DNA from: Poseidonia sp.
GTDB taxonomy: Archaea > Thermoplasmatota > Poseidoniia > Poseidoniales > Poseidoniaceae
Direction: 5' to 3'
Assembly: GCA_965661285.1 (NCBI GenBank)
Contig: CBFIDD010000005.1
Span: 1 to 41,475 of the forward strand
DNA length: 41,475 nucleotides
Shown: positions 4,801 to 38,010 of the stretch, in pieces
How the letters are laid out: each line of letters starts with the position of its first letter
Position numbering within the stretch: position 1 is the first letter of the stretch
The notes under the pieces: model-generated
Database searches by the model: none
Seen by the model: the letters and a program-made list of their open reading frames with translations, nothing else
Told to the model about the DNA's origin: nothing
Made by a program: the position numbers and the translations under genes

Positions 4801-7800
4801 TCCCAGATGAACTGGGAGCTGACCTGCTCAAGAACGATGTTGATGGCGACATCGACGGCGATTTCACCAACTCAACCATCGATCTTGACGACGATTACGA
4901 CTCGATTTTCGACTGGTTTGACGTTGACGATGACAATGACGGTGTGTGGGATTACTTCGAGGTCGACAGCAATTTCGACCTGGATGACGATACCGGCCAA
5001 AACAACGGGAACTTCTTTTCGGGAACCAACTGCGATGACAACGACGATGACGGCAACGACGCCGATGCAGACGATGACGGCTTCTATCAGGCGGTTTGGG
5101 ACCAAGGTATCATGTCGCAAGGTCTCCGTCAACCAACCTTGTACGACGTCGACAACGATAACGATGCGATTCCCGATGGCGAGGACCCTGATGACGATAA
5201 CGACGGCCGGTTGGATGTCGACCAGGAACGCCTGACTGGATGTTTCTGGGGCGAAGAACAGTCCACATGGGACAACGATAACGACGGTATTGTCAACTGG
5301 GCCGACGACGACTGGGACGGCGACGGATTGCCCAACTTGGAAGAATTGCTTGAAAGCATCACGGCGCCGTTTGACCATGACAACGATGGCGTTCGCGACG
5401 ACCTCGACGAAGACGACGATGAGGACGGCATGCACGACGAAGACGAAGTGCTGCTCTGGCCCACTCGCTTTGACCGCAATTCTACCAACCCGTGGGACCA
5501 CGACGACTTTGGCGACGGTGAAGCACTTGCCAACCCACTCGACACTTCCACGGGACCCGATGCCATCGACATGGACGACGACAATGACACGCGAAACGAC
5601 GTGGACTTCGACCACACCGAAGACAGTGAACTGACATCGGATTGGGACCATGACAACGACGGCATTCTCGATGCTGACGACAAGGCGCCGACCTACATCA
5701 CCCTCAACCTGCCAGACAACTTGTGGCTGGATGCACAAAGTCCTGCCATCTTCTCTGGGCATGTGGATTGGCTCAACCCCATCACCGGTGTGGTGGAACC
5801 GGCTCCGCAACTGCCGGTGCAGGTTCACATTGAATGGACTGCCAACAACACGACGGCCATCGAAACGATTGACGTCTTGACCAATGCGGGTGGCAACTTC
5901 AGCGTTGGACAGTTCCTCTATCCTGAGGATTTGACCGTCGGCGACAACACCACCTACAGGGTTTATGCAGAGGTCACGGAGATGTTCATGTTCAACGGCA
6001 ATCAATCGCAATCCTACTACGTTGGGGCAGAAGCCAACATGACGGTTGACTATTCGGCCTGGACGTTTTTCCGAAGCGATGAACAACCGTTCTGGCTCGA
6101 CTTCAAGGCGCACTATGCAGCCGATTGGGACCGTGGCCTCTTTGACAACCGCATCAAGAACTCCCCGATCACCTTCTCCATCTTTGGTGGCTTGTTTGGA
6201 AACTTGACCGCTCCAACCAACTTTACCGGTTTGGGCAACAACGGTTATCGAACCGACGCCTCGGGCTGGGCTTCGCTCACCTTTGTCCAAGATTTGGGTA
6301 TTGCCGGAACCTGGAAACAAGTGCAATGGAACTCAACCGCCAGCAACGGCGCTGGACAAATTCCCGGCGGATACGAAGAGATCATATGGAACGACTTGAC
6401 CAAGCAACACGACGTTGTGTTGGACGGAGATGGCGACATCGTTCGCTACAACTACACCAACACCAGTCTACCTGCTGGTGATATCGAAATTATCGCTCGG
6501 GCATCACCCGAACTGGCGTCAGAATGGCCGTTCCCCTACCTTCACGGCGATGAGGCCGAACCGTTTTCCGTTCGTATCATGCACCGCATGAACATCGAGG
6601 GAACCTTGGTTCTTGACGGATTGAGCCCCATCTACTACTACGACGCCACGGTCAACAACGGCGACGGAACGTTCGGCGACTGGTCGACGCTCTTCCACCA
6701 GCCTGCGCTGACAGCCGCTGGTGTCAACTACAACGATGTTTCAGCCTTCAAACCGTATCCGAAATCTTGGGACGGCACCCCCGAGGGCCTCACCGGACAA
6801 GCGGCCGCTCTACGGCCCTTCCTTTCCGGCAACGGCACGCACTGGTTCATTGCGCTGGTCAACGGTGGAGACAGCAACCTACCACCGTGTGGCCCGGTTG
6901 ACCGAACCGACCCCAACAGCCCGATTCGCTGTGAAATCGTTCCTGAAATGAACACCGGAGATTCCCTTCAGGTCATCGGCAAGGTCACCAACCGCACCAA
7001 CGATCCGTGGGACCAAGACCCCATTGCGCTGCAGGTTGACGTTGACAAGAACGGGCAATTCCTTGGCGCTGGCGAAACGGCTTACACCCAACGTCCGATC
7101 ATGAAGGACGGCGATGCGACCTACGACTATAACTGGTCGTGGTTCAGCCAATACGGCGCTGGCACATACGGCCTGCGCGTTGATTTCACCAATTCGGCCT
7201 ACTACTTCACCGGCAACTCATCGACGTTGGCCCCAACAGGCGCTTACATCAACGTCACAGTCGTCGGTACCACTGATTTCCAAACCACATCGCTCCCACG
7301 CCTCTACCGAAACACCAACACAACCATTCAGGCCAAGCTGGTCGACAACTCACTTCAGCCGGTGCGAAACGCTCCGGTGAACTACACGTGGTCCTTTGAC
7401 GGACGGACGGGTGTGAACTTTACCGACAGCAACGGTTTCTTCGAGATTCCGTTCAACGTCTCTGCCAGCGACGCACTCGGTAACTTCACGCTGCAGTTCG
7501 AATATTCAGGGACTTCGTTGCTGAAAGGCACCACGGTGAGTCAATCCGTTTGGGTGGTTTCTCGTACCTACATGCAAGTCATCTCAACGGAAGACAATCT
7601 GCGTAGGTCCGGGGACAAGTGGGATTTCACCGCCCAAGTTTCGGACGACAACAAGACGCTCGTGCGCGATTCCGGTGGAACCGCTCTCTCCGGCTCTGAA
7701 ACGCCGTACGGCGGATTGGTTGACGTCATCTTCGAAGGCACGGACTTCCAAGGTACGCTTCACCGACAGGTCGTGGCAACGCTCGCACCTAACGCTGGTG

Positions 7801-9920
7801 TGATCTCTTTGCCAGAGGTGGAACCGGATGGTTCACACCTCTGTTTCTACGACGGAAACGGCGACAACATCCCCGACCGAGACGTTGATGGCGACGGTTT
7901 GGAGGTTGAGGAATCCATTGGATGTTTGAAGTCAAACATTTCACCGCTGAACCCCGCTCTGCTGCGAGCCGACCCTGAGTCGTTCCTGCCTGACGGATTT
8001 GGCCCAGTGAACGTTATTCTCAGGTTCCAAGAGACGCTGCCAAACGAAGGATGTCAACCGCTTGATGTGAGCTATCTCGGTATCCAGGGCGCATGGGACC
8101 CATGTACACAGGTACCTGGAAACGACCATTTCCGCTTGACCATGACCAACAATGCCAACGGGTTCAACCTCATCGGCCGAACCGTCATGACGGTGGATGA
8201 CCAAATCGTCTACACGAGCGAAATCGACCCGCTCACGGGCGAAGTGGTGCCCAAGCCGATGATAGTGACCGGCCAACTCAGCGACGAGTTGGGCGTGAAC
8301 CTGACCGACCGAAGTATCCGCGTGAACTACGAGATGGTCAACGGCCAAACCGGCCCCGTTGCTTGTCAGTCCGGCACCACCAACGCCGACGGCCTCTTTG
8401 CCATCACCTGTCCGCTCTCCGACGTGATGGCTGGCAAGGCCAAGGTGACGGTTTCGTACTCTGCCTACGACAACAACGACGCATACCGCTACGAGAACAA
8501 GACGGTTCAGACCGAGTTCGATGTGTTCTCCAACTCGACATTGCAGATCACCGAAGTCGGACCGTTCAAGTCCAGTGTTGACCAGTGGGTTGCTCCAAAC
8601 GGATCCCGCTACCCCGTGTTGTATCTCAAGGAGTCGTTCCACATCGACGCATTCCTTGCGCAGTCCAACGGTCAAGCCGTTGGCGGCAAGTGCCTCAACA
8701 TCTACCTCGACCCCGACGAGAACATCCGCCCACTGGCAACCGTTCGCACCAGCGACATCGACGGTACCGTGGAATGGTTCAGCGGCGACCCGCTTCAAAA
8801 CCCAACCCTCCGAGGCGTTGAAACCACCGGTGGCAAGCTGGAAGGCTTCCGTACCCTCAGGGTGGCGTTTGAGCCCGACCGCAACATCCCAGGTGGCTGC
8901 GATAAGGACAGCAGCAATGCACTGAACGGCTCGGCCATGGACACAGAGGTCCTCGTGCGTTCCCGTGTTGACCTGCAGGTCAAACAAACGTGGAGCAACA
9001 GCGGCGCCAACGGCGCCGACGAAGGCGACCTCATCAGTGGACAAATCGCTTTGCTGCGCGACCGTCTCGACCTCGCTGTTGAGAACGAAGAAGTCATCTT
9101 CGCTTACGAGTTCTTCAACGACGAAACCGGCGAATGGGAAGTCTCTGACCTGAACAACAAGACCCGAACCAACGAACAAGGCGTTGCCTCCTTTGAGTGG
9201 AGCTTCGTCGGACAGAGTTGCGACGGCAATCCGTGTTCGGGCGTGTGGCGAATCACGGCGTACTATCCCGGCTCAACCTACTTTGCGCCCTCACAGGACA
9301 ACATCACCCACGAAATCACGTACAAGAAAGCAGAGGCGTTGGGCGACAGCAGTGGCTTGTTGAGCCCGGGCAACCTCATCGGTTTCGCCATCATCCTGAT
9401 GGCGCTCTTGATCGCCGGTGCCATTTACTACCAGCGTGTCCAACAACAACGCCAGGTGCAAGCGCTCCGGGGTATCTTAACCGATGCCATGATGCAACTC
9501 GAAGCGAGCAACGAATACATCGCTGCGATTTTCGACTGCTACAAGAGTTTGGTGAAGCACTTCAGGAAGTACGGCTTCATGAAGAAGGTCTACGAGACGG
9601 CCCGTGAGTTTGAAGCAGCCGTTCGTGCCGCCTTCAACATGGTACCTGTCGACCAACTGGACGACTTCTTGTCCATCTTCGAAGAGGCCCGATACTCCGA
9701 GCACACGATCGACGCATCCCACCGCGACCGCGCCCTCCAAACGCTCGGTGCCATCACCAATTCGTTGACGATGGCGCTTGGCGAAGAGTCGGTGGTCAAG
9801 CGCGTGGACGTCACGAGCATTTACGACAACCTGACCAAGGCTGGCGAATTCGTGGCTGCTGACGGCTCGGTGCGCCAAGCCGGTATCGTTGAAGGCGAGA
9901 ACACGGACTTCAAGATTTGA
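1842..9920 (+). CDS. Giant cell-surface protein: TSP3-like Ca-binding repeats, Ig-like beta-sandwich region, C-terminal TM helix and DUF4129-like cytoplasmic domain
   Basis: N-terminal hydrophobic segment, dozens of DxDNDG motifs, TM LIGFAIILMALLIAGAIYY, tail with ETAREF...FEEARYS typical of DUF4129; GAGGTG SD-like site. Confidence 0.85.
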   Translation: MLSKQHTQQIEERQQLSMAIIIVFLMLASSLLAIVQTVHDGPEATRETRLVDGGSLGMTPVQSTDQGGQGGWDGVHDSRYDMAHEALTNLMWSDPGVSAGVIVDLSVLEAAIPAYSTFLEETRAGDHDNDGIDDLADLDDDNDGIYDLLERFDGCYGTDPYDHDNDGILDVDDWDDDNDGILEGPIDYDALEAQGLDPRNVSTDRYLDPNIDHPHPDIGAVGNFYLADQNPMDHDNDGVTDEDSDGAGPGRYDEDDDNDGRIDQFTWPCDLDSDGVSDYFDTDDDNDGVPDVDDTHPYDAAITTQMSATSSLYDTSRVWTFNEYRAYSGGVDYVEWERNRVNAPTATASGFGALGAQGTPTFSQIIDGDLDGDGAPNFLDPDNDNDGTPDSADTDDDNDGILDMVDPDDDNDGIPDTCIQIDTNGDETSDYTGLQNGGVTGLSLTDGGSSYIDGNDISTSSATSTGTGMTVNIVTTLGTVTSVSVNKPGSGYANGDALTITGGASDAEITVTGTSSVSFEIPGADGDADGIVDCEIDYDYDLDDDILRPFDQNYNGVYDWLDSDMGGTTSPDNLGNFAVGGADLPYDLDNDNIENENDSFPLDSAADVATWNCPSQANPNPVTPDPRCQTRRASFSQFNDWDGDGISNWDDVDDDNDGIIDALDIDWDCDLDNDNDLHVLNGGLYRDDGPNDVDSDIDGDGLENSIDWDDDNDGISDLFDPDDGNCGVVDFDGTDAFATPYYPVNDGGALDGSADSQLYGTNSTDHWNMVFKHYPFADVVLNYNGYDATTTPVTPGVVPEFYWFLFARWSPYNGGNEWDIDSDGDSLINGLDVDQDADGMPDWWDQDEGNDGILDVDDIKMGGTFNLSVCGWTAGNLGQGYVCGYSYALAYKMPLNGVNAQFGAPYSTRPDAAFDQGPTAGGPSGNWSCTPVADIGCWHYDFGGDGTIDSAVTYTQMVDNRDAYITWIGLTTGIWQWNSDNGPEADFPDELGADLLKNDVDGDIDGDFTNSTIDLDDDYDSIFDWFDVDDDNDGVWDYFEVDSNFDLDDDTGQNNGNFFSGTNCDDNDDDGNDADADDDGFYQAVWDQGIMSQGLRQPTLYDVDNDNDAIPDGEDPDDDNDGRLDVDQERLTGCFWGEEQSTWDNDNDGIVNWADDDWDGDGLPNLEELLESITAPFDHDNDGVRDDLDEDDDEDGMHDEDEVLLWPTRFDRNSTNPWDHDDFGDGEALANPLDTSTGPDAIDMDDDNDTRNDVDFDHTEDSELTSDWDHDNDGILDADDKAPTYITLNLPDNLWLDAQSPAIFSGHVDWLNPITGVVEPAPQLPVQVHIEWTANNTTAIETIDVLTNAGGNFSVGQFLYPEDLTVGDNTTYRVYAEVTEMFMFNGNQSQSYYVGAEANMTVDYSAWTFFRSDEQPFWLDFKAHYAADWDRGLFDNRIKNSPITFSIFGGLFGNLTAPTNFTGLGNNGYRTDASGWASLTFVQDLGIAGTWKQVQWNSTASNGAGQIPGGYEEIIWNDLTKQHDVVLDGDGDIVRYNYTNTSLPAGDIEIIARASPELASEWPFPYLHGDEAEPFSVRIMHRMNIEGTLVLDGLSPIYYYDATVNNGDGTFGDWSTLFHQPALTAAGVNYNDVSAFKPYPKSWDGTPEGLTGQAAALRPFLSGNGTHWFIALVNGGDSNLPPCGPVDRTDPNSPIRCEIVPEMNTGDSLQVIGKVTNRTNDPWDQDPIALQVDVDKNGQFLGAGETAYTQRPIMKDGDATYDYNWSWFSQYGAGTYGLRVDFTNSAYYFTGNSSTLAPTGAYINVTVVGTTDFQTTSLPRLYRNTNTTIQAKLVDNSLQPVRNAPVNYTWSFDGRTGVNFTDSNGFFEIPFNVSASDALGNFTLQFEYSGTSLLKGTTVSQSVWVVSRTYMQVISTEDNLRRSGDKWDFTAQVSDDNKTLVRDSGGTALSGSETPYGGLVDVIFEGTDFQGTLHRQVVATLAPNAGVISLPEVEPDGSHLCFYDGNGDNIPDRDVDGDGLEVEESIGCLKSNISPLNPALLRADPESFLPDGFGPVNVILRFQETLPNEGCQPLDVSYLGIQGAWDPCTQVPGNDHFRLTMTNNANGFNLIGRTVMTVDDQIVYTSEIDPLTGEVVPKPMIVTGQLSDELGVNLTDRSIRVNYEMVNGQTGPVACQSGTTNADGLFAITCPLSDVMAGKAKVTVSYSAYDNNDAYRYENKTVQTEFDVFSNSTLQITEVGPFKSSVDQWVAPNGSRYPVLYLKESFHIDAFLAQSNGQAVGGKCLNIYLDPDENIRPLATVRTSDIDGTVEWFSGDPLQNPTLRGVETTGGKLEGFRTLRVAFEPDRNIPGGCDKDSSNALNGSAMDTEVLVRSRVDLQVKQTWSNSGANGADEGDLISGQIALLRDRLDLAVENEEVIFAYEFFNDETGEWEVSDLNNKTRTNEQGVASFEWSFVGQSCDGNPCSGVWRITAYYPGSTYFAPSQDNITHEITYKKAEALGDSSGLLSPGNLIGFAIILMALLIAGAIYYQRVQQQRQVQALRGILTDAMMQLEASNEYIAAIFDCYKSLVKHFRKYGFMKKVYETAREFEAAVRAAFNMVPVDQLDDFLSIFEEARYSEHTIDASHRDRALQTLGAITNSLTMALGEESVVKRVDVTSIYDNLTKAGEFVAADGSVRQAGIVEGENTDFKI

Positions 9921-12074: not shown

Positions 12075-12152
12075 GGGCCCGTGGGTTAGCTTGGCCTATA
12101 CTTGGCGGCTGGGGGCCGTCAGACCCCGGTTCAAATCCGGGCGGGCCCACCA
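12075..12152 (+). tRNA. tRNA-Pro(GGG), CCA encoded
   Basis: Acceptor GGGCCCG/CGGGCCC, anticodon arm GGCGG-CTGGGGG-CCGTC, T arm CCCGG-TTCAAAT-CCGGG; usual archaeal position after rpoN. Confidence 0.95.
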
Positions 12153-12203
12153 CTCTTGCTTCACAGTGTGTACACCTTGAAGACGCGGAGCCTTTGGATT
12201 GAT

Positions 12204-15200
12204 ATGGCGCCACCGCAACGCCAGTTCATGCGACAAGGCCGAGCAATGGGCATGGTAACCCTTCTCCTGACCGTTCTTCTTCTGCCCGTGGTGAACGCTG
12301 CAGACAGTACGGTCTCAACCAGTACCACATGGTCGGGAGACATGGTGCTTTCCGGCAACGTGACCGTTGCAAGCGGAGTAACGCTCACGGTGTTGCCCGG
12401 TACGACCGTCGATGCCAGGGAGTACGCCATCATCATTGAAGGAACCTTGGTCGCCGACCAGACCGTCTTCTTTTCCTCCATCACCCCTGAAACCCAAGGC
12501 TCACACGGCCAAGGGCTCTGGCCCGGCCTCGTTGTGGAGCCGGGCGGTCAAGCCAATTTGACCGAGGTGACCGTCGCCAACGCTTCTGCTGGCGTCTTGG
12601 TACGAGGCGACTTCAACGGAACGAATGTGGTCTTCAACGACGCCTACCGTGGACTTTCCGTCATGGGTGGCGAAGCCGTTGTTTCGGGATTCGAGGCCAA
12701 CCGCATCGACTACGAAGCGATGTATGTTGAAAGCGGAGAACTCAATGTTACCAACGGTACGGCCACCGAAGTGGCGGCCGGTCTTGCCAATCACGCCACT
12801 GCAAACATCCTCGAATTCACCGTAAACCAGGCAGGTGTCGGCGTTCAGTCCTTGGGCGGCACCCTCGATCTTCGAGGTCTTGGCGTGTACAACGCAAGCG
12901 TTGGTGTGGCGACGGCCTCAGGCGCCTCCACATCGGTTCGCACGTTCTTTGGAACGGGACTCGCACTGGCCATTGATGCAGGAGATGCCGATGATTTCGA
13001 ACTGCATCTTGCCCGCCTTTCGGGTGAACGCTTGGTGGTCGGTCAAGGTGTTTCGTCAATGTACATGGAGGATGTCGGGTTTACGGCGACCTCTGCATCT
13101 GAATTGAGACCGATTGTCGATGTGCGGTGCGATGGCCTGTGCAAACTGGAAAACAGCACTGTTGATGGCGTGGCCCGCAGCGGCGTTTCTTGGTCGGGAG
13201 CCGGGACTTCTCACATGCAGAATGTGTTCGTTCAAGCGGCTGAACAAGCGATTGGGGCCTCGGGAAGTGGCCATGCAGCATGGACGAACCTCACCGTGAA
13301 CACCTCGAAGACGGGCGTGTCGGTACAGACCCCGACCAGCACCTTGGACGACATCACCGTCGTCCTCACCTCGGATGATGCTGTTGGGGTTGACGTCCTG
13401 GGTGGCGTCCACGATTGGTCTAACCTCACCGTGGAGAAATCCTTCGTTGCTACGGATACGAGCTCGGTCGGGTTGAAATCGTGGTACAGCGACCTCACCA
13501 TAGAACGTTTGACCTCAAGAAACGTCTCAATCGGGATGCTGCTGGAGGACTCCTCACTGGTGGCCCAATCGGTTGAGGCCAACATTGGCAGCCTTGCCGG
13601 TGTCCACCTCATCGATTCCACCTATCGTGGTTCAGGCCTCACCACCATCGCACAAGACGAAGGCGTGTTGATGGAAGGCGATGCGTCCCTCCATCTCTCT
13701 TCCTGGACCGCACAACTCCACGATACGCCCTTGATGATGTCAACGGGCAGTACTGCTGTTGTGAGGGCCTTTACGCCACTGAATACGGCACCATCATCAG
13801 CCGACGCCCTCGGGGACGGAACGCTGTATTACGGTTCAAGTTCCAACCCCTCCATCAGCACCTCAGCGTCGTACCGTTTCGTTGAAACCGACGTCACCTT
13901 CACCGATTTAACCGGTCAACCCGTTGAAGCCCATGTCGCCGTTCACGGTTTTTCACTCATGAGCAACAGCAACGGCGCTCTTACCCTTCCCCTGGTGAAC
14001 ACCGGGTCGGTCGTTGATGTCACGCTTGATGGTGCTGGGGCTCGCGTCACGCTTTACGGTGGTCAAAACGGGCAATCGGTACAGGTTCCGGTCATTCCGG
14101 ACGGTGACTGGACCATCGCATCCGGTCAAGATGTTGTGCTGGGGCCTCGCCCCGACGGGCAGCCTCATCAGTTAACGGGTGATTTGACGGTCGCCAACAA
14201 TGCTGCATTGACCCTTGTCTCAACCGATGTCGTGTTTTCGTCTGGCCACACCGTGTCGGTGGAAGGTACGGGACAACTCATCGGCGAAGCTGCCACCATC
14301 ACCGCCGATGCGCTTCAGGCCAGCGGTGAAAGCGTGCTGACCGGAAGCGGCACCGAAGCACTCACGCTTGATACCAATGTTCAGTGGGGCTGCCTCAGCC
14401 CACGAGAGGTGCAACACCTCAACATCCTCGGTACACTCACCGTCCAACCCGGATGTGAAATCGACGTGATGAGCGGAACGGTTGAGGGCACGATTACGGC
14501 CATGACCGGGGCGGTCTTCACCAGCTCATCAACCCTTGAGATCGAGGTCTTTGACAAAGGTGAACCGGTGGACGGGGCGCTAATCTCTATCGAGGGCTCG
14601 GTCGCCATGACCGACGAGAATGGAGCGTTGTCAACCGAGACCGTCGCTCGACGTGTCACCGATACCGGAGTGACATGGGAGGGCATCAAGACCGTCACGC
14701 TTCAGCGAAACAACTTCTCGGATTTTGTCACATGGGACACCAACCGTTCGCTCACGCACACCTTCATGGCGTCCACGGTACCCAGCGGTGCGGTTTCAGG
14801 ATGGCTCGTGCTTGAACGCCAATGGAGCCCGTACACGCTGGATCATTCGCTGGAACTTCAAAGCGCCTCGACCATGACGATTCAGGACGGCGTCTCGTTG
14901 CGCATTTCAGAAGGCGCCACCATCACCGTGAACGGAGTGCTTGATGCGGGCGATGCCACGCTTTCCTCCACCGGCTTTGGGGCGCGCTGGGGCGGCCTTG
15001 CTCTCGGCAGTTCAACGGCGGCTGCCATCGAACTCTCGGGAACACAACTCATCGAGTCCGCCCCCGCCATCACGGTTTCGGGATTGGGTTCAGTTCAAGC
15101 CGATGGGGTCTTCATGGCACGATCTGCGAGCGATGCGCTCGTCGTGGTTGAGTCCGGAAGCGCTGCGACGCTGGTGCTTCGCAACAGCCATTTGCAAAAC

Positions 15201-16898
15201 GCGAGCGGTTGTGCCCAACTCTACCCGTCCAGCGGCCTCATCACCTTCAGCAACGTGAGTTTTGCCGATTGTGAAGAGCAAGCGATTTGGGCGCAACAAA
15301 CACCGCTTCAGTTTACCGATTTGACGTTCGCAGAGGGGACGGATGCAGGCATGGAATTGACCGGTGTTTCCGGTTCCATCAACGGCGTTGATGCGACCAA
15401 CTTCCAAGGTGCCGATGCCATCATTTCGCTCAACAGCATCACGTCTGCATTTTCGCTGACCGATGTATCGGGTGAAGTCACCGGCCAAACCGGTATCGTT
15501 GGCGAGAACAACGAAGACATCACCATTGAGCGCGTCCATCTTACCGGTGCACCGGCCATTGACTTGGATCGGACCTCCGGCCTCCTCTCCGACATCACCC
15601 TTGAGGGCGATGGCAGCGGAACGGCGTTCATCTCTCACCACGGGCGTTCATCGGCCTCGTTGGTCGTTGAAGACCTCGACATCTCTGGCTATGCCGTCGG
15701 GGTTTCGCTTCACTCCGACCCCGGTGAAATCAGTGCACCGCTGGTGATGCGCAACGCTCACATCGTGGTTTCGAGCGCCTTGGCGACGGAAGAATTTCCC
15801 GTCAGAATGGAAGGGTGTTCCCTCATTGGTAGCGTCGATGTCGCCTTTACCGAGGTGGTATCGGTGGACGGCCAAGTCGGAACGGTCTCCGCCAGCGAAG
15901 GGGGAGAATTCTCTGCTTACAGAACGGTTGCACTTGATGCACAGCGTGCAGGTCTCCCGGTCGCTGCGACCTTTACCGTGAGCTATGGAAGTGAACTGCT
16001 CGACCCATTCACCGTCCAAGGCACAACGGTGGATGTCGAATTGCTCCTGCGAACCATGACAGCATCTCAGGAAGCGGTGGCCTCTCAATGGGTGGTGAAG
16101 GCCGTGGTCCCGGGGTCGCCTGCTGCCGAACTGACGGTGGCTTCACCCGCAACCTCGCCCTCCGTTTTGGTGGTGAACATTCTTGTCAACCAACCCCCAG
16201 AGGTCCAACTGCTCGAGCCGTATGCGGGTCAACGCGTCATGGAAGGGGATTCGATTCGCGCTTCGGCTGAATTCAGCGACGACATGGACGACGTCGACGC
16301 GCTCGTTCTCTCGTGGCGTGTGTACGATATGGCCGGAAACACCGTGCTGCAAGGCGGCGACGAACCCGTGTTCAACATCACGGATTTGACAGCAGGTTTC
16401 TACATCGTTGAGGCGACGGTATCCGACACCTTTGGCGAGCAAGCCATCGCATCCATGGATTTCGAATACACGCTTCTCGACACCGATAACGACTGGTCGT
16501 CTTCGTGTTCGTCCGATACGTGGTTTGACCCGAATACCGGTAAATCGTGCGGGCCCAACATCTACGACCAGGACGACGATAACGACGGCTTCAGCGACGA
16601 GAAGGATGCGTTCCCTCTCGACCCGTGCGCTCAACTTGATACCGACGGCGATACACAGCCCGATGTTTTGGACTGCCCGGAGGGCTACACAAGTTGGTTG
16701 ACCGAAGACATGGACGACGACGGGGATGGAACCCCAGATGTGCTTGAGGGTGCAGATACCAGCGACGACGACGACATCAACGTGAACGCCCTCATGGTGG
16801 TTCTCGCGCTCTTTGTGGTGGTGGCCATGCTGTTCTTTGCTCGACTGCGACGGGGTGGTCCGGGCGATTTGACATCGCTTGACCAACAACATCTCTGA
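12204..16898 (+). CDS. Large surface protein with right-handed parallel beta-helix modules, Ig/PKD-like domain, TSP3-like repeats and C-terminal TM anchor
   Basis: Signal peptide ending PVVNA, repetitive beta-helix-like pattern, DDDNDG/DAFPLDP repeats, TM ALMVVLALFVVVAMLFF followed by RLRR; start may be 12204, 12228 or 12246. Confidence 0.8.
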   Translation: MAPPQRQFMRQGRAMGMVTLLLTVLLLPVVNAADSTVSTSTTWSGDMVLSGNVTVASGVTLTVLPGTTVDAREYAIIIEGTLVADQTVFFSSITPETQGSHGQGLWPGLVVEPGGQANLTEVTVANASAGVLVRGDFNGTNVVFNDAYRGLSVMGGEAVVSGFEANRIDYEAMYVESGELNVTNGTATEVAAGLANHATANILEFTVNQAGVGVQSLGGTLDLRGLGVYNASVGVATASGASTSVRTFFGTGLALAIDAGDADDFELHLARLSGERLVVGQGVSSMYMEDVGFTATSASELRPIVDVRCDGLCKLENSTVDGVARSGVSWSGAGTSHMQNVFVQAAEQAIGASGSGHAAWTNLTVNTSKTGVSVQTPTSTLDDITVVLTSDDAVGVDVLGGVHDWSNLTVEKSFVATDTSSVGLKSWYSDLTIERLTSRNVSIGMLLEDSSLVAQSVEANIGSLAGVHLIDSTYRGSGLTTIAQDEGVLMEGDASLHLSSWTAQLHDTPLMMSTGSTAVVRAFTPLNTAPSSADALGDGTLYYGSSSNPSISTSASYRFVETDVTFTDLTGQPVEAHVAVHGFSLMSNSNGALTLPLVNTGSVVDVTLDGAGARVTLYGGQNGQSVQVPVIPDGDWTIASGQDVVLGPRPDGQPHQLTGDLTVANNAALTLVSTDVVFSSGHTVSVEGTGQLIGEAATITADALQASGESVLTGSGTEALTLDTNVQWGCLSPREVQHLNILGTLTVQPGCEIDVMSGTVEGTITAMTGAVFTSSSTLEIEVFDKGEPVDGALISIEGSVAMTDENGALSTETVARRVTDTGVTWEGIKTVTLQRNNFSDFVTWDTNRSLTHTFMASTVPSGAVSGWLVLERQWSPYTLDHSLELQSASTMTIQDGVSLRISEGATITVNGVLDAGDATLSSTGFGARWGGLALGSSTAAAIELSGTQLIESAPAITVSGLGSVQADGVFMARSASDALVVVESGSAATLVLRNSHLQNASGCAQLYPSSGLITFSNVSFADCEEQAIWAQQTPLQFTDLTFAEGTDAGMELTGVSGSINGVDATNFQGADAIISLNSITSAFSLTDVSGEVTGQTGIVGENNEDITIERVHLTGAPAIDLDRTSGLLSDITLEGDGSGTAFISHHGRSSASLVVEDLDISGYAVGVSLHSDPGEISAPLVMRNAHIVVSSALATEEFPVRMEGCSLIGSVDVAFTEVVSVDGQVGTVSASEGGEFSAYRTVALDAQRAGLPVAATFTVSYGSELLDPFTVQGTTVDVELLLRTMTASQEAVASQWVVKAVVPGSPAAELTVASPATSPSVLVVNILVNQPPEVQLLEPYAGQRVMEGDSIRASAEFSDDMDDVDALVLSWRVYDMAGNTVLQGGDEPVFNITDLTAGFYIVEATVSDTFGEQAIASMDFEYTLLDTDNDWSSSCSSDTWFDPNTGKSCGPNIYDQDDDNDGFSDEKDAFPLDPCAQLDTDGDTQPDVLDCPEGYTSWLTEDMDDDGDGTPDVLEGADTSDDDDINVNALMVVLALFVVVAMLFFARLRRGGPGDLTSLDQQHL

Positions 16899-17976: not shown

Positions 17977-20190
17977 ATGGGCGAAGCGGGCGCTTTCTCC
18001 GAAGCAGATGAGGCGCGTATCGCCTCACTTGCGGACCAAATCGCCCATCATTCGCACCTCTACTACAACCTCGCCCAACCCGAAATCAGTGATGCAGCGT
18101 TTGACCGTCTGTGGGACGAACTCAAGCAACTCGACCCCGACCACCCTCAACTCAGTCGCGTCGGTGCAGACATCGCTCCGGGCAGCGTGAAGGTTGACCA
18201 CCTCTTTCCGATGCGCAGTTTGGACAAAGCCACCTCGGCTGAGGAACTCAACCACTTTGTGAACACCACGACTTCAGGGGCCACTCGCTTCCTTTCTCAA
18301 CCGAAATTGGACGGCTCTGCTCTTTCACTCGAATACCGCATGGGCAGATTGGTTCGTGCTGCCACCCGAGGAAGCGGTGAGCGAGGCGAAGATGTCACGC
18401 GAAACGCCCGGAAAATCGACAATGTTCCGCACACGCTCCCCCTCCCCGTCGACGTCCATGTTCGAGGTGAAGTCGTCATGCCGCTTGCTGTGTTTGAGGA
18501 GAAATACAGCGATGTTTCTCCGAATCCTCGGAATCTTGCAGCCGGCGCTTTGCGGCAGAAGCATGCCGACGGGAAAGCCGATGCATCGGACCTTGTGTTC
18601 CAAGCCTACGATGCTCAAGTTCCCGGCGACGAACATCGTCACCCCGACAGTCAACCCGTCCCCGATATGGCCAACGATACCGACATGCTCGTGTGGATGG
18701 AAGACCGTCTGGGCATTGCTCCCGCCCCGTGGGAACTCCATCACGGCGAATCGCCCTCGCAGGCAGCCCAACTCTTGGACCAAGCGACCGTTGCTTGGAC
18801 AGAAAAACGCAGCACCCACGCCTTTGAAATCGATGGCGTGGTGTTCAAACTTGACAATTTGGCTCAACGAAACAGCCTCGGCATGACGGCCCACCATCCT
18901 CGCTGGGCCCTCGCGTGGAAGTTTCCCCCCGAAGAGGCGTACTCGGTGCTCCTGGATGTGGAATGGCAAACAGGTCGTACCGGCAACATCACGCCGGTGG
19001 CCCGTATTGCACCCCAGCGGGTGGGCGGGGTGACCGTTGAGAACACGACGCTGCACAACGTCGGCGAAGTTGACCGGCTCGGCATCAACATTGGTGACAA
19101 GGTCCTCATCGTCCGCAGGGGCGATGTCATTCCCAAGATTGAGCAAGCCCTCGGTCCTGCAGAGCCAAAGGACCTGACCGGGAGATTTCACGCGGATGGC
19201 GAAGCCTTCACGGACTCCCTCCCCGAACCAAGCGCCATCTCCACGCCGAATGCTTGTCCGGCTTGCGAGGGACACGTCGAGATCGAAGGGGCCTTCCTCA
19301 AATGCGTGAATCTCTTTTGTGAAGCTCGAACAAGCCGCTCGGTGCTCTACTGGTGCCGGGCTCTGGAATTGGACGGCGTGGGAGAGAAACTCGTTGACCA
19401 ACTGCTCGATGCACAGCACATTCGTTCGTGCGCCGACCTCTATCGGCTCACGTTGGACGACCTGCTGAGTCTTGAGCGCATGGGTGAAAAGTCAGCGACC
19501 AATGTGCTTCGGGAGGTTGACAAGGCTCGAACCATGTCGCTTGGAAAGTTCCTCCACGCTTTGGGACTTCCAGGCATTGGGCCCGAACTGGCTTCAGCGA
19601 TGGCGTCGGTGCTGGGCGATACGCAGCAGATGCTGGCATGGTTGGACGAAGCCCATGCCCAGCCCGGCGAGGCAGCTTTTGGTCCCGACCAAGATGAGGC
19701 AGGTAAACCGTATGCCCACAACCAAGCGCTTCGCAAGGTCCTCGCTCTCGATGGCGTGGGCGAGATTGTTGCCCTTCAGTTCCGGGACGGCCTTCAGGTC
19801 CGTCGAACGCTCGTCGAAGATTTGGTCGACCTTCTCACCATTGAAACCGAGGTCGTAAAGCCGACGGCCGGCCCCTTCCTCGGCATGACCTTCTGCGTGA
19901 CGGGAACACTTTCCGCCCCCCGCAAGGAAATTCAACAACGTATTATCGACGCAGGCGCGAAAATCGTCGGCAGCGTTTCAGCGAAACTCAGCGTTCTCGT
20001 TGCTGGAGAAAAGGCTGGCTCGAAACTCACCAAAGCCACCAACCTTGGCGTTGATGTCTGGTCGGAACAAGAATTGAACGCTCGTCTTGAAGGGGATTCG
20101 GACGGAGGAAGAAGCGAGACCGCCATTGTTGAGGGCGACGAACAACCCCAAACAAGCGGCCAATCCTCGCTATCGGATTTTCTAGGATGA
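17977..20190 (+). CDS. ligA: NAD+-dependent DNA ligase
   Basis: YY...ISDAAFD domain Ia, PKLDG adenylation motif, TRGSG..GEDVT, IDGVVFK, AWKFP, RGDVIP, C4 zinc finger, HhH and BRCT regions. Confidence 0.97.
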   Translation: MGEAGAFSEADEARIASLADQIAHHSHLYYNLAQPEISDAAFDRLWDELKQLDPDHPQLSRVGADIAPGSVKVDHLFPMRSLDKATSAEELNHFVNTTTSGATRFLSQPKLDGSALSLEYRMGRLVRAATRGSGERGEDVTRNARKIDNVPHTLPLPVDVHVRGEVVMPLAVFEEKYSDVSPNPRNLAAGALRQKHADGKADASDLVFQAYDAQVPGDEHRHPDSQPVPDMANDTDMLVWMEDRLGIAPAPWELHHGESPSQAAQLLDQATVAWTEKRSTHAFEIDGVVFKLDNLAQRNSLGMTAHHPRWALAWKFPPEEAYSVLLDVEWQTGRTGNITPVARIAPQRVGGVTVENTTLHNVGEVDRLGINIGDKVLIVRRGDVIPKIEQALGPAEPKDLTGRFHADGEAFTDSLPEPSAISTPNACPACEGHVEIEGAFLKCVNLFCEARTSRSVLYWCRALELDGVGEKLVDQLLDAQHIRSCADLYRLTLDDLLSLERMGEKSATNVLREVDKARTMSLGKFLHALGLPGIGPELASAMASVLGDTQQMLAWLDEAHAQPGEAAFGPDQDEAGKPYAHNQALRKVLALDGVGEIVALQFRDGLQVRRTLVEDLVDLLTIETEVVKPTAGPFLGMTFCVTGTLSAPRKEIQQRIIDAGAKIVGSVSAKLSVLVAGEKAGSKLTKATNLGVDVWSEQELNARLEGDSDGGRSETAIVEGDEQPQTSGQSSLSDFLG

Positions 20191-20994: not shown

Positions 20995-21078
20995 GAGACG
21001 GGGTGGGACTCGGTGCCCTTCAACACTTTCCCCGTTTGGCCACCAAACCTTCATCATCAACGATGCCCACCTCAAGCC

Positions 21079-22263
21079 ATGGGTGAGGGTACACCGGAGA
21101 CGGAACGAGCGCACCAACTCTCCCCGTCCGCTTGGAACCGCTACGAGACCTGCCCGCGAATGTACTGGCTGAGCCGGCAACGTCTGCCTCGCAAAGCCGG
21201 GATGGCCGCCTCGCTGGGCACAGCCGTTCACGCCTCGATTGAAGACTTGCTGAACATGGACTTGACAGGGCGAGAGGATGCGGAGGCAGGATGGCTTCCC
21301 CTCCAGGCCGAACGCTTCCTCAAGATTCGCTGGGATGAGGAAAAAGCGGTGTTCATGAGCACGCCACGCCGTCCTGATTGGAAGGATGCGAAGTGGAACG
21401 AAGCGAAGAAGCAACAGCGCGGAGGTATCGTGCTTTTGTTGGACCACATCGGAGCGAAACATCTCAACCACGAACAAGTCACCGTCGCCCTTTGGCGCCA
21501 TCTTCAATCGCTCACCATCGCCGTAGAGGGAGAATTGAGAACCGGCGACGGTCGTTTGATGGGCCGCCTGGATTTGCTGTTCGCTGATGTGGACGACGCC
21601 GGAGAAATGCAGGGTTGGCTGGTGGCCGACTTGAAAACCGGAAACGCACCGACAAAGGAACTCAAGCCAGAAGTCAACCGACAACTTCGGATGTACAGGG
21701 ACATCTTGCTGGCCAATAACCCGAGCGCCCCTCCGGTTCGAACGGAGGGATGGTACACAAAAACAGCCTCCAAATGGTCGGCTGAAGGTGAAAGCGTCCT
21801 CGAACAGGCCTATGCTGCATGGGAGGCGACGCAACCCACCACCATGCCGATGAAACCAACGCCCGGTGCAAACAGTTGTGGCGGCTTTTGTGATTGGAAA
21901 GCTTGGTGTCCACACTGGTGGACGTGGCGCCAAGAATCCGGCACGCTCCATCAGGGTGATTTCTGCGATGCGGTCGTTTTGCTTCATCGGTACGAGTCGT
22001 CGTCGGGCGCCGCCGTGTTGGAACTCTGTGAGCCCTTGGATTCCACAGGCAGAGCCATACCGACCGGACACCAACTCGCCGCGAAGTTTGACGGACGTGG
22101 AAAAGAAGTGCTCGAAGAACTCCAAACATCAGGCCACCAAGGGGCGATCTTCCTTGGCTCGGTCATGACGGGGCGCGGAACGTGGCGCATAGGGCCGTGG
22201 TGTGATGTCTTGCCCTGGTCACCGATGCCCGATGATGAGCCCTACGAGCGACCAACATCATGA
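21079..22263 (+). CDS. PD-(D/E)xK nuclease, RecB/AddB/Cas4-like, with probable Fe-S cysteines
   Basis: LSPSAWNRYETCPRMYWL, GTAVH, GRLDLL, DLKTG, QLRMY, CGGFCDWKAWC. Confidence 0.88.
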   Translation: MGEGTPETERAHQLSPSAWNRYETCPRMYWLSRQRLPRKAGMAASLGTAVHASIEDLLNMDLTGREDAEAGWLPLQAERFLKIRWDEEKAVFMSTPRRPDWKDAKWNEAKKQQRGGIVLLLDHIGAKHLNHEQVTVALWRHLQSLTIAVEGELRTGDGRLMGRLDLLFADVDDAGEMQGWLVADLKTGNAPTKELKPEVNRQLRMYRDILLANNPSAPPVRTEGWYTKTASKWSAEGESVLEQAYAAWEATQPTTMPMKPTPGANSCGGFCDWKAWCPHWWTWRQESGTLHQGDFCDAVVLLHRYESSSGAAVLELCEPLDSTGRAIPTGHQLAAKFDGRGKEVLEELQTSGHQGAIFLGSVMTGRGTWRIGPWCDVLPWSPMPDDEPYERPTS

Positions 22264-23076
22264 GCGCAAGTGCGCTTTGATGCGTTCCTTGGTCGCCTCA
22301 CAATCCAACCCGTTGGCTGAAAGAAGCCAACCGATGTAGGCGGGGTCGTTGGCCTGAACCTCAGAGAGGTACCGGCCACGATGGCGCCCAAAGGCCAACA
22401 CCAACGCTTCCCCGTCCTCTCGGACCTTTCCCATGGCGTCGACCGGGGCCAAGTCGTCAAGTCCACGTCCAAGTTCCGATGCGTCCCGTGGCTGGTCGCC
22501 ATGGGCAATCCATCGCTCGAGTTCGGGGATTGACCGTCGGAAGGCTCCGGCATGTTCCACAGAGAGACGCCAGAACAGCAACATGGTCGCAGCAGCATCG
22601 GCAGCAGCCGTGTGGGCGGCCTCAAGGCGAATGCCGTGCCGTCGACACAGGGCACCAAGGTTGTGTGGCCGTGGAAGGCGGAGTCGACGAACCAACTCGA
22701 GCGTGTCCATGATGGCCTTTGGCTGCGGTGCTAAGCGTCCCATGCGCAAAAATTCGGTTTTCAGCATGGCGTAATCGAAACTCCTGACATTATGGCCGAC
22801 CAGAATGGCGCCGTCGATGAGGTCTGCGAGTTCGTCGGCGACCTCAGCAAGCCTTGGCTTGTCTCGGACATCCTCGTTGAAAATACCGTGAATTTGGCTG
22901 GCGTCGTAGGGAATGCGAACGCCGGGTTTCACGATCTGCTCTCGGTTCACAGGCGTGCCGTCTTCCAGCGTCCCAATCAACGCAAACTGAACGATTCGGT
23001 CGTTGTTGGTGGAAACCCCTGTGGTCTCCAAATCAAAGGCCAAAACCTTCTCCCCATGAAAAAGGTCCTGTGCCAT
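22258..23076 (-). CDS. DEDDh 3'-5' exonuclease (DnaQ/exonuclease X-like)
   Basis: FDLETTG, GHNVRSFD, HTAAAD motifs; C-terminal FGRHRG...DPAYIGWL module. Confidence 0.9.
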   Translation of the reverse strand: MAQDLFHGEKVLAFDLETTGVSTNNDRIVQFALIGTLEDGTPVNREQIVKPGVRIPYDASQIHGIFNEDVRDKPRLAEVADELADLIDGAILVGHNVRSFDYAMLKTEFLRMGRLAPQPKAIMDTLELVRRLRLPRPHNLGALCRRHGIRLEAAHTAAADAAATMLLFWRLSVEHAGAFRRSIPELERWIAHGDQPRDASELGRGLDDLAPVDAMGKVREDGEALVLAFGRHRGRYLSEVQANDPAYIGWLLSANGLDCEATKERIKAHLRS

Positions 23077-23143
23077 GAGCATTTATCGGCGGGCACCCCC
23101 TTTGAACATCACTCTCAAACACCATGACGCTCTCAGCACACCC

Positions 23144-29379: not shown

Positions 29380-29503
29380 AACCCATTCTATTCATTCATA
29401 ACATTATGTTGAAAAAAAAAATACATATTTGTGCAGATTTCTAGGTTCGTTCGGGCGAAACCGACTTAACCGTGCGAAGGCTGAGCGTAGATGGGGAGTC
29501 GCC

Positions 29504-32500
29504 GTGTCTCGTCGTAACATCATTGTCTCATTTCTGATTTTTTTTCTCATCGCACCAGCGTGGTCCGTCATGTTCGCCCATGCCCAGGGCGGTGAAATTG
29601 ACACCTTTACAACGGGAAACCAGATCGAAACCATCACGATTTCTTCGGGACAAGCCACCTCAATCGGGTTTGAATTGGAGCGAAACACAACCATCACCAC
29701 GGCCTACTTCTTTGTACAACCCACCGAGGGAGGAGATTCTCCTGGTTCGGTTGAGATTCATCTTAACAATGACAGCTCTCCCGAGTGGGCTTTCAACAAT
29801 ACCGGATACGGTGATTTCGGCCACCAGACGGTTTTTGTTTCAGGGAACACGTCAGAAACCCTCTCGTACGACAGGGATTACCTAAACCCGCAGGATGTTG
29901 ACTCTCCTCCGTTTTATTTACCGGTGAACGCCGTTCTCTCAAGCGCCAATCTCGACGTCGGCTTCGTACCGAACTTGACCGGTGGATTCTTCCAAACCGG
30001 CTACATTCACGATGTCGCCAAAGGCGATCTCAACAACGATAGCCACGTTGATTTTGCGCTGCTCTCAAGAAACGCAAATGCATCTGCCACCAATGGAAGC
30101 GGACAAAGCAACAACACAACCACGGCCTTCAGAACCGTTTCTTATTCCAACACCACGGGCATCACCTTCTCACCATGGCACCAAACCTGCACAAATGCTA
30201 CGCGAATCATGGTAGCGGATGTCAACTGGGACGACCATGACGATGTGATCGGCTACGCCCCATCGGATAACGAACTTTGTCTGCACTTCACCAATGCCAC
30301 GACCGGCGCATTTCAAACACAGCTCAACATCACCCACTCCGGCGCCATCCTCGATCTCGATATCGGCGACCTCACCGGAAATGGACAAGCCGAACTGGTT
30401 TCCATTCGTAACGGAGGTGAGGTTCATGTTGAACGGTTCAACGGGAGGACCAACTCATTTTGGAGAGAGGGAAGCGCTATTGTCTACGAAGATATCTCTC
30501 AGACGACAAAAGCCTCGCTCTCCCACATGCTCTTCGCCCCTTCAACAGGCGCCGGGGTTCCTGCGTTATTGATTGTTGCCCAGGCCGATGGCGACGCGAA
30601 TGAGGTTCGTTGGACGTCAAACGGGATGGTGGTCGAACCGGATACGATTGAGGGCGTTGCGGATGGTTCGATCATCGGTGATTTTGATGGCGATGGGGAC
30701 CTCGATATCGTTGCTCCTCGGGGCCCTCAACATCGGACGATTGAGAACCGGCCGAATATGGGGGGCTGGTCTGGCGTCAACCGCAATGGCTTCATCGACC
30801 TCCTCAATGCATCGGTTTTTGATGTCAAGCAAAACGCAACCAGCCACTTGCTGGTACCACACCCGGGGTCGCCTGATGGGAACCCTGCGACCGTGACTGG
30901 GAACGTTTCAGTCCATGATTTCTGGCCGAACAAGGCTGTGAAATCCAACGCCTCTATGGCGTTGTATCCGTACACATCACCACGAGACCTTCACTACGGT
31001 GATATGGACGGCGACGGCTTGATAGAACAGCTCGTACTTGTGGGTGAAGGAAATCAAAACGGTGTGTTCATCTCCGCCTACCACACGGTTGGTTACGATA
31101 TTGACGAAGATGAGGTTGTGGATTATGCAGCCGAAGGCTATGCGGGGAACGGTTCAAACGGTCTGAATCCATTGATGATTGTTGACACCATGGGGAATCT
31201 CTCTGATAATTTACAAGATTTAACGGCCTCTCCAACCTTGCCTTACATACTTGATGGGTATGGCAATCAGATGGGGCGACTCAACCTTTCAATGGACAGC
31301 AAAACCTACGGCGAGTTTCGATTCTCAAATTTGGAGGTTCAATACACCTCAAACTTCCTGGTCAATGTCAACCCGGGCGTAGGAGGCAATTTGAGCAATG
31401 CGCTCAATCAACAGATGACGCTCGGCACGGGTTCGTTCAACGTTCCCATCCAGTTCGCGACATCGCAAAACGGGACGTTCAACATCCTCAATCCAAGCAT
31501 TCGCTACGTCGATGGGGCACCCAACATTCCACTTCCCACAACCCCAACGCTACACCTTATCGAGGCCCTCCCGAGTCGAATCGTGATCGGATGGCAACCG
31601 GTTGAGGATTTTGGCGATGATTTGCTTAATTTCTCGGTTTACAGGTCGCCCGCAGGCCAGGATGTTGATTTGGAGAACCCGTACAACACGTCGGATGCCA
31701 ACGATACGGCTGACTTTGCCGTACAGCCGGGTGAATCGTGGACCTATTGGGTGAGGAGTTTGCACAACTACGGTGTTGCCAGCGGCCTTTCTGCGCCGCT
31801 TACCGTGTCGGTCCCCTATCCTCCTCCACAATCCTACATACCCAACCTAACAGCGGCCGACGTACCGGATGATGATGGCGGTGTGCTGAATGTGTCATGG
31901 AGTTCGGGGCATGCTTCGGTCATGGAACATCATATTTTCTTGCTGCCTTACGATTTCAATGATGTCAGCGACCAAACCAATGTCCAACCTTTGACGGCGG
32001 GTCAAAACGCAACATCACTTGAAACCTCAATCGACAGCACGGGGACACCTCTCATCGACGGCACGCCCTACTACGTTGCCGCCATCGGTGTAGACGTGTA
32101 CGGAAACGCTTCGATGAACGTGACCACTTTCGGTCCTGTTTATACCCGAAACGACACGGGGCTTCCAACGACGTTGGACGTGTCCTACACCGACTTTTCA
32201 CAAAACGAATTGGAGGGTGTGGTTCTTCTCGCACGAACCGAAGGTCTTGATGTTGAGGTCCTTCTTCATCAAGCAGGCACGCCGATCGCCAACGCTTCAC
32301 TGACCCTCGAGATCCGCGACGATGCAGATTCGTTCACCGTGGACATGGCCACCAACGAGACCGGCCATGCAGCTTTGAGCCTAGATGCGCTGTCGAGCCT
32401 CGGCCCGATAGAGGCGGTGGGGGCCATGTCCTTGGTCGTAAGTTATGCAGGTGATGCAGGTGATGAGCAGCAGCAACCCTTGCTCTCAACCAGCACCACG

Positions 32501-33838: not shown

Positions 33839-33893
33839 TCCTTCCGTGACTCTTTTCATTGAGCCTTGAGTGGACCGATACGGAGGCAGAACG

Positions 33894-34652
33894 ATGGATG
33901 CGAAGTTGCAATCCTATTCCCTTGTTCTCCACCAGGATGCAGACCCGAGAACGGGCGGCGTCGCCGTGTGCGGTTTCACGACGGCGGGGATGGTCGGTGT
34001 CATCGCTGCGTCACACATCATCAAAACACTCGGACTCAAGCAACTTGGAACGGTCATGCACAAGGATTTCCCTGCAGTGGCTCTCATTCACGACGAGGTG
34101 CCAAAACACCCCGTTCGTGTCTATCAGGGTGATGACATCGGCGTCTTCACCTCTGAAATCCAATTCGGCAACGAGACGGACATTCCTTTCGCGACCACGG
34201 TGCTTGAGTGGTTCACCAAGGGCGGTTTTGACCGCCTCATCATCATCGATGGCCTCACGCGGCCGGAAAAGGAATTGAGCAGCGGTGATTTGTTTGGCGT
34301 TGGCTCGATTCCTGCAGCCCGTGAACGCTTGAAGAGCCTCGACATCGAGCCCATTCAGCAAGGCATCGTTTCGGGCATCACCGGTTTTTTGCTGGGCGAG
34401 GGTGACCGACTCGGTATTGACATCACGGCTCTTCTTTCCGAAGCCAGCCCCATGTATCCCGACGCCCGTGCTGCTGCTCTTGCCGTCGAGGCCGTTGGTG
34501 ATTTGACGGGATTGGACCTCCCCCTCACAGAACTGCTCGAAAATGCACGTTCGATTGAAGACAGCGTGCGGGACATCATCGAAAACGCCTCACAAATGTT
34601 GCCCGCACCCGACCAGAGCAACATCACCGACATCGACCCGTCGTTTGGATGA
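33894..34652 (+). CDS. PAC2-family proteasome assembly chaperone (second paralog)
   Basis: GFTTAGMVGVIAASHII, HPVRVY, YPDARAAA motifs. Confidence 0.88.
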   Translation: MDAKLQSYSLVLHQDADPRTGGVAVCGFTTAGMVGVIAASHIIKTLGLKQLGTVMHKDFPAVALIHDEVPKHPVRVYQGDDIGVFTSEIQFGNETDIPFATTVLEWFTKGGFDRLIIIDGLTRPEKELSSGDLFGVGSIPAARERLKSLDIEPIQQGIVSGITGFLLGEGDRLGIDITALLSEASPMYPDARAAALAVEAVGDLTGLDLPLTELLENARSIEDSVRDIIENASQMLPAPDQSNITDIDPSFG

Positions 34653-37943: not shown

Positions 37944-38010
37944 GCTGTTTTGCACGAAGAATGATTATATCCGTTCGCCAATGTTGTTCAGTGTCCCGGC
38001 GGTGAACACC

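Follow-up and report, generated by a model that had tools for sequence, protein, structure and literature searches.

A predicted PCNA-interacting motif at the C-terminus of the NAD+-dependent, bacterial-type DNA ligase of Poseidoniales

The ligA gene of Poseidonia sp. (assembly GCA_965661285.1) lies in a 41,475-nucleotide window, the whole stretch of DNA analyzed here (contig CBFIDD010000005.1, positions 1 to 41,475), and encodes an NAD+-dependent DNA ligase of bacterial type (LigA) whose C-terminal tail resembles a PCNA-interacting (PIP) box. The source genome comprises 1.98 Mb in 8 contigs, with a completeness of 93% and a contamination of 0.08%, and the closest database LigAs bearing names are those of Poseidoniales or Poseidonia. 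The archaeal neighbors of ligA within the window encode ribosomal proteins L18e and L13, MCM, Trm1, a GatE-like protein and two PAC2 proteins. The ligA reading frame is complete and encodes 737 amino acids plus a stop codon. The features of the gene and its product are as follows.

17977..20190, + strand: ligA, NAD+-dependent DNA ligase (Pfam: Nlig-Ia, adenylation, OB, HhH, BRCT)
18010..18159, + strand: domain Ia (NAD+/NMN-binding), residues 12-61 (PF22745, E 5.1e-9; aligns with the N-terminus of 2OWO)
18190..18933, + strand: adenylation (nucleotidyltransferase) domain, residues 72-319, with K110-L-D-G (PF01653, E 5.9e-51)
18946..19158, + strand: OB-fold domain, residues 324-394 (PF03120, E 6e-25)
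19255..19320, + strand: Cys4 zinc finger, C427, C430, C443 and C448 (invariant in a 46-sequence alignment; aligns with the Cys-containing stretch of 2OWO)
19363..19620, + strand: helix-hairpin-helix DNA-binding region, residues 463-548 (HHH_5, HHH and HHH_2 matches)
19870..20079, + strand: BRCT domain, residues 632-701 (PF00533, E 2.1e-12; aligns with residues 595-666 of the 671-residue E. coli LigA)
20092..20160, + strand: acidic, variable, predicted-disordered linker, residues 706-728 (no consensus; pLDDT < 50 at 708-732)
20161..20187, + strand: PIP-box-like motif Q729-S-S-L732-S-D-F735-L-G at the extreme C-terminus (conservation; match to the tails of the cell's own DP2, PolB and Fen1)

The function of the ligA product can be predicted from its domain architecture. 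The protein matches E. coli LigA (PDB 2OWO, E 2e-104), with query residues 10-196, 276-554 and 631-701 aligned. The KLDG motif of the adenylation domain pairs with KLDG of 2OWO, and its K110, D112 and G113 are invariant across the 46 aligned LigA sequences. Judged by sequence, the protein is a bacterial-type NAD+-dependent LigA with every catalytic and DNA-binding module, and it is predicted to be active in ligation. E. coli LigA ends five residues past the aligned BRCT domain, and residues 706-737 are therefore an extension. The translated C-terminus reads ...EGDEQPQTSGQSSLSDFLG-stop, and positions 20161-20190 (CAA TCC TCG CTA TCG GAT TTT CTA GGA TGA) encode QSSLSDFLG-stop. The presence of a PIP-like tail on LigA, first described in a first-pass annotation of this DNA, is thus confirmed at 20161..20190 on the forward strand. 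The acidic linker that precedes it, GDSDGGRSETAIVEGDEQPQTSG (residues 706-728), is 23 residues long instead of the approximately 25 first given, with six acidic residues and one basic residue.

The extension has also been modeled. In an AlphaFold2 model built from a 46-row alignment (mean pLDDT 74), the last BRCT helix spans residues 697-705, residues 708-732 have pLDDT values under 50, and a helical turn of three residues is placed at 732-734. The motif occupies the last nine residues, on a segment whose low pLDDT and unalignable linker indicate flexibility. Such a prediction is typical of a short linear motif that is tethered by a disordered segment.

The PIP motif is defined as QxxhxxaA at the extreme terminus in the available text of two papers (PMC4929162, PMC2737543). 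Compared with the consensus Q-x-x-(L/I/M)-x-x-(aromatic)-(aromatic), the LigA residues Q729, L732 and F735 agree. The resemblance was placed in the context of the genome by scanning the last 14 residues of each of 7268 stop-to-stop open reading frames (ORFs) of at least 100 residues (1,549,741 residues). The broad pattern Q..[LIMV]..[FWY] was found in 41 ORF tails against 31 expected from its overall frequency. The narrower pattern Q.SL..F occurs 24 times genome-wide and in five ORF tails against 0.9 expected, so its occurrence in tails exceeds chance. The five proteins, each identified by Pfam, are listed below by C-terminus.

PolB: ...KQTSLFSF
PolD large subunit DP2: ...KQLSLSDFL
Fen1: ...GQTSLFSFDG
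HD-domain protein: ...SQSSLAQFD
LigA: ...GQSSLSDFLG

The result of the scan therefore indicates that LigA ends in the PIP flavor of the cell's own replisome, with a tail almost identical to that of DP2. This close match also bears on a second potential partner, since the canonical DP2 PIP is reported to be dual, binding either PCNA or primase (as relayed in the available text of PMC7594292), and since in Pyrococcus the primase large subunit reportedly vies with PCNA for the C-terminal PIP of DP2. It could accordingly be supposed that the LigA tail docks a partner other than, or besides, PCNA, such as the primase large subunit. However, the same core also ends PolB and Fen1, whose common known partner is PCNA, and the tail displays no primase-specific feature. 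Docking to such a partner is consequently considered improbable, and it would extend the PCNA reading without excluding it.

Two further proteins outside the window have C-termini of related form. The HD-domain protein (477 residues, contig C6 77274-78707, - strand) contains HD and HD_assoc_2 matches and ends ...PSQSSLAQFD. With its Q-x-S-L-x-x-F tail it is possibly a further PCNA client by sequence; no role in DNA metabolism has been shown for it. The HD and HD_assoc_2 families include dGTPase/dNTP-triphosphohydrolase-like enzymes. Topoisomerase VI subunit B (contig C4 71110-73206) has a weaker PIP-like tail, ...GQQTLMGYGSDA.

The first-pass annotation proposed that conservation of the motif be checked among related LigAs, and the motif was found to be widely kept. 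The query LigA was compared with its 120 best homologs in the database, which are 63-96% identical to it, and 112 of them match the strict pattern Q..[LIMV]..[FWY] within their final 14 residues. Four others have a Q-less T-L-x-x-[FYW] form and two have the close variants ESSLSDFS and KNLFDFHS, and the remaining two are broken proteins without a BRCT domain. A second, genomic set covered 62 LigA loci from all 21 genera sampled in the order, with tail classes assigned by regular expression and mended by eye for false positives and negatives. The motif is kept at 55 of these loci, 42 in the Q form and 13 in the Q-less form (TLFDF/Y or TLDRW). At three loci (L019, L020 and L027) TLFDF or TLDRW lies more than 10 residues from the end. 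One further LigA frame (locus L064 in genome G068, genus g6) stops early at ...RITSSHRIS-stop. Its apparent loss of the tail is attributed to a frameshift or assembly error because QKSLMDF sits in the +1 frame after the stop, and a database homolog 91% identical to it (P0241) ends ...EEQKSLLDF.

The conservation of the motif was further probed at the level of residues and codons. In the 46-sequence alignment Q729 and L732 are invariant, S731, D734 and F735 each reach a conservation of 90% or more, and the 23 columns that precede the motif lack any consensus residue. The tail that follows the BRCT match ranges from 13 to 102 residues across the order. At the 38 loci with the strict pattern, all six Leu codons, both Gln codons and nine Ser/Thr codons are used at the motif. 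Such synonymous turnover indicates that the motif residues have been held through saturating synonymous change; as these loci were picked for carrying the motif, the codon result speaks to its maintenance and not to its frequency. The aligned orthologs show the LigA motif to be under purifying selection. Among the DP2 tails of 34 genomes of the order, those of one family follow KQ[LM]SL[SA]DFL and those of the other families V-x-TL-x-DF-[LIVF], and a core of [S/T]-L-x-[D/E]-F is common to DP2 and LigA tails across the order.

Whether the genome retains an ATP-dependent ligase, a second check suggested in the first-pass annotation, was addressed with profile and tblastn searches. No PF01068 match was found in the genome, and a tblastn search of it with the 585-residue ATP ligase (KYDGLR motif) of a class-level relative, G146, gave a best E of only 0.83. 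Across the order, PF01068 is found in 0 of 121 genomes (0 of the 56 of high quality) and LigA in all 121. LigA is therefore the only recognizable DNA ligase of the order. Replacement of the ligase in Marine Group II (MG-II) was already known, as the available part of Table 3 of Borrel et al. 2014 (PMC4153887) tabulates MG-II as without an ATP ligase and with a bacterial NAD+ ligase.

The clamp of this organism has been compared with archaeal PCNAs of known structure. The genome has a single PCNA gene (contig C1, locus L001 1066-1803, - strand). Its product can be aligned with H. volcanii PCNA (3HI8, residues 13-245) along almost the entire sequence, and with A. fulgidus PCNA (1RWZ, residues 2-245) from one end to the other; for the latter, the peptide complexes 1RXM and 1RXZ are on record. 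The conserved Met46 and LAPR stretches are present in these alignments. A profile search of the genome for the DnaN beta-clamp gave no PF00712 match. Because DnaN was not found, the clamp available to LigA in this archaeon must be PCNA.

Additional insight comes from a wider sample of 201 Thermoplasmatota genomes, in which LigA is found in 87 and PF01068 in 119, and from which 30 non-Poseidoniales LigA loci were examined. In one family of this sample (f5), seven LigAs carry an extension, with the ends ILTLDEFIK, IMTLDEFFKA, ILTLDEFFK, IVTLDEFFK, ILPLDEFVDEK and IIPLDKFMKGL. DP2 in five genomes of the same family ends in HTKLSDFF, HSTLDDFFK, HTKISDFL, HAKLDDFF or NTTLKDFF, and Fen1 in f5 genomes ends in KQKSLFDF. 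Comparison of these termini suggests that the LigA tail again copies the local DP2 flavor, as in Poseidoniales.

The relationship between these ligases was probed with LigA trees constructed with FastTree (139 rows) and IQ-TREE in its quick mode (62 rows). In both trees the Poseidoniales LigAs form one clade (support 100), whose sister is a metagenomic LigA, P0243, with a PIP-type end of its own (...AQATLDRFG; support 85 and 89). This clade lies inside a wider one (support 98 and 97), apart from the clade of the other Thermoplasmatota LigAs, and it is in the latter that the f5 tails are nested among tail-less relatives. An approximately unbiased (AU) test rejects the grouping of Poseidoniales and f5 as one clade (delta lnL 226, p 2e-75), a grouping defined after inspection of the tree. 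The presence of PIP-like tails in two phylogenetically separate LigA lineages indicates at least two origins of the tail. Among LigA cluster representatives from outside Poseidoniales, even the closest share only 39-44% identity with the query, and hence no recent donor is visible. A search of genome contigs with P0243 returned only ordinary bacterial LigAs of 34-40% identity, and another representative, P0244, is 100% identical to the LigA of a Thermoplasmatota genome (G193, family f36). The QTKLAEW end of P0281 was considered as a PIP tail and rejected, since it follows the conserved BRCT end directly and without a linker.

The cluster representatives also contain tails of a different type. 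Four of the 150 best end in a bacterial beta-clamp motif (KKQLNLF, KKQLLLF, VQLPLF and TQSSLF), and three of the four belong to the same wider clade as the Poseidoniales enzyme. These proteins (P0272, P0304, P0311 and P0329) have long C-terminal extensions ending in a beta-clamp pentapeptide (QLNLF, QLLLF, QLPLF or QSSLF); P0304 and P0311 are 1078 residues long and P0272 is 901. Two other candidates for clamp-motif-like tails, P0307 and P0373, proved on inspection by eye to be false positives of the regular expression. Given these relatives, the archaeal tail might be an inherited bacterial beta-clamp motif (of the QL[S/D]LF or QxxLxF type) that has no clamp function in the archaeon, and it is true that some orthologs read QPSLFDF, which contains QxSLF. 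This explanation is nevertheless regarded as extremely unlikely. The genome lacks a detectable DnaN, a functionless motif would not be expected to stay invariant beside a saturated linker while using all six Leu codons, and both the Q-x-x-L-x-x-F spacing and the match to the DP2, PolB and Fen1 tails of the host are of the PIP type.

The same observations allow for a functional descent of the tail. A LigA peptide of H. pylori, QEFIRSLF, located near the BRCT domain, has been observed bound to the beta-clamp (PDB 5FRQ, PMC4976356), and according to the available text of a review (PMC3504372), PCNA2 is believed to accommodate the QLTLF of Sulfolobus PolB1, a motif similar to the E. coli consensus. 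With these precedents, and with clamp-motif LigAs sharing the wider clade, the archaeal tail could descend from a bacterial clamp-binding tail. One scenario would be that an ancestor received a LigA with a C-terminal clamp-binding peptide that was cross-compatible with PCNA, and that this peptide was re-tuned to a PIP, which would have eased the complete displacement of the ancestral, replicative ATP ligase. The retrofit would then have recurred in at least one more Thermoplasmatota lineage, with each lineage copying the flavor of its own DP2. This course of events is speculative, and as a whole it is judged rather unlikely.

Several observations weigh against the interpretation of the LigA tail as a PIP box. 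First, the fit to the consensus is incomplete, as position 8 is Leu in the LigA of this genome and is missing in many orthologs, whose last residue is F or Y, so that a single aromatic residue is conserved in place of the canonical two. The same Leu deviation is found in the genome's own DP2 tail (QLSLSDFL). Second, a C-terminal PIP is missing from the candidate for the RFC large subunit (locus L235), and RNase HII (contig C6 19634-20260, outside the window) ends ...EQQRLF, from which it follows that the local PIP repertoire is not uniform. The short Q-x-x-L-F end of RNase HII is nearer to the bacterial clamp motif than to the local PIP. Third, six of the 62 Poseidoniales loci, two each from genera g8, g9 and g17, are tail-less directly after the BRCT domain; no downstream read-through or frameshift with a hidden motif was found in these LigAs. 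Finally, in another Thermoplasmatota family (f16) PF01068 matches 0 of 16 genomes whereas 15 of the 16 have LigA, and 10 of the 12 LigAs examined (loci L069, L072, L079, L081, L084, L086-L088, L091, L092, L095 and L096) end right past the BRCT domain without a clamp motif. The other two (L072 and L091) have the truncated ends KQTTL and KQSTLL. It follows from the tail-less f16 enzymes that LigA can serve an archaeon without a tail.

The tail-less genera also lend themselves to the view that the tail has a different role, for example as a signal for stability or degradation or in regulatory binding to the body of its own ligase molecule, or that its resemblance to a PIP box is due to chance. 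It might be added that the convergent gene abutting the ligA stop belongs to the PAC2 family of proteasome assembly chaperones. However, the genome-wide tail scan ties the motif mainly to replication proteins, the convergent PIP-like tail of the second LigA lineage matches the DP2 of that lineage, and the model lacks a confident contact between tail and body (pLDDT < 50). A role of this kind, or a chance resemblance, is thus thought to be very improbable.

On balance, the sequence comparisons argue that the LigA tail (Q-x-[S/T]-L-x-[D/E]-[F/Y]) is very probably a genuine PIP box carried by the displacing bacterial-type ligase of Poseidoniales, with a probability of roughly 0.8. The earlier proposal that an acquired ligase has been fitted to the PCNA clamp is thereby supported at the sequence, comparative and phylogenetic levels. 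Physical binding of the tail to PCNA, and stimulation of ligation through it, would be expected from this reading. Since three genera and most of the LigA-only f16 family lack the tail, the PIP box appears to be helpful and not obligatory.

A mechanism can be proposed for a LigA with such a tail. The terminal motif would dock in the hydrophobic pocket and on the interdomain-connector-loop surface of one subunit of homotrimeric PCNA, in the mode expected for the DP2, PolB and Fen1 tails of the same cell. PCNA that remains on the DNA after gap filling and flap removal could then hold LigA at the nick, where the enzyme would serve in Okazaki-fragment joining and in the last step of repair. The linker of approximately 23 residues may allow the tethered ligase body to encircle the nick.

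The proposed role is the same as that of the PIP-box ATP-dependent DNA ligase 1 in the Sulfolobus Lig1-PCNA3 and Pyrococcus Lig-PCNA-DNA systems, namely a nick sealer recruited to PCNA through a PIP motif in the maturation of Okazaki fragments. The available texts of PMC7594292 and PMC3504372 list the ligase beside PolB and Fen1 as a PIP-bearing client of PCNA. In contrast to ligase 1, Poseidoniales LigA has a different catalytic lineage and cofactor (NAD+ in place of ATP), and PF01068 is absent. The PIP of ATP ligases is located in the N-terminal or DNA-binding-domain region, whereas that predicted for Poseidoniales is a C-terminal tail after the BRCT domain, placed as in DP2, PolB and Fen1. 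The DP2 tail is a further parallel to the LigA tail, as the two peptides are nearly the same and occur in the same genome on unrelated proteins. In Thermococcus, cryo-EM places the C-terminal PIP of T. kodakarensis DP2 (ISLDEFFGS) in contact with PCNA, according to the available text of PMC7594292.

A bacterial-type LigA acquired from bacteria is likewise at work in another archaeon, Haloferax volcanii. Its LigN and the native ligase have an essential function in common, presumably the joining of Okazaki fragments, according to the available texts of PMC1684257 and PMC7776575. Haloferax LigN coexists with an ATP ligase, whereas Poseidoniales LigA stands alone. The words "PCNA" and "PIP" are absent from the available text of the Haloferax LigN paper (PMC1684257). 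A tblastn search of the PLSDB plasmids with LigA returned only bacterial replicons among the best 40 of 253 records, none of them haloarchaeal. The H. pylori enzyme offers a further comparison, in that its contact with a sliding clamp, like that predicted for Poseidoniales LigA, relies on a hydrophobic linear motif that is short and lies close to the BRCT domain. In H. pylori this motif is internal and its target is DnaN, whereas in Poseidoniales the Q-x-x-L-x-x-F motif forms the terminal tail. A search of the full-text literature, which left subscription journals mostly uncovered, found no mention of a PIP box on an archaeal NAD+ ligase, so that an earlier mention is possible.

The surroundings of ligA in the window complete the description of the locus. 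The TGA stop codon of ligA (20188-20190) directly abuts the stop of a convergent PAC2-family gene (- strand, ORF from 20191) with no spacer, and an antisense PAC2 reading is also found downstream of LigA in other Poseidoniales genomes, indicating that the arrangement is conserved. Just past this PAC2 gene lie genes for a PD-(D/E)XK nuclease-superfamily protein (21013-22263, + strand) and a DEDDh exonuclease that is RNase T/ExoX-like (22258-23082, - strand), and neither protein has a PIP-like C-terminus. A second PAC2 gene is located at 33870-34652 and MCM at 37717-40140. The window also contains three very large ORFs on the forward strand (1842-9920, 12102-16898 and 29429-33838) of 2692, 1598 and 1469 residues, with weak Pfam matches only (DUF4129, beta-helix and FG-GAP), and these probably encode surface proteins.

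The exchange of a core replication enzyme for a non-homologous one from another domain of life should be hard, because the newcomer is without the contacts that would place it in the replisome. Poseidoniales, which are among the most abundant planktonic archaea, appear to run on a bacterial-type ligase throughout the order, and the one adaptation that can be seen is a tail of nine residues, a copy of the clamp-docking peptide found on the resident polymerases and on the flap nuclease. The genera that lack the tail, together with the tail-less LigA-only family, provide natural controls. If binding holds true, Poseidoniales LigA would offer a testable system for the weight of clamp tethering in the sealing of Okazaki fragments, as well as a clear case from nature in which a short linear motif integrates a horizontally acquired enzyme into a foreign machine.

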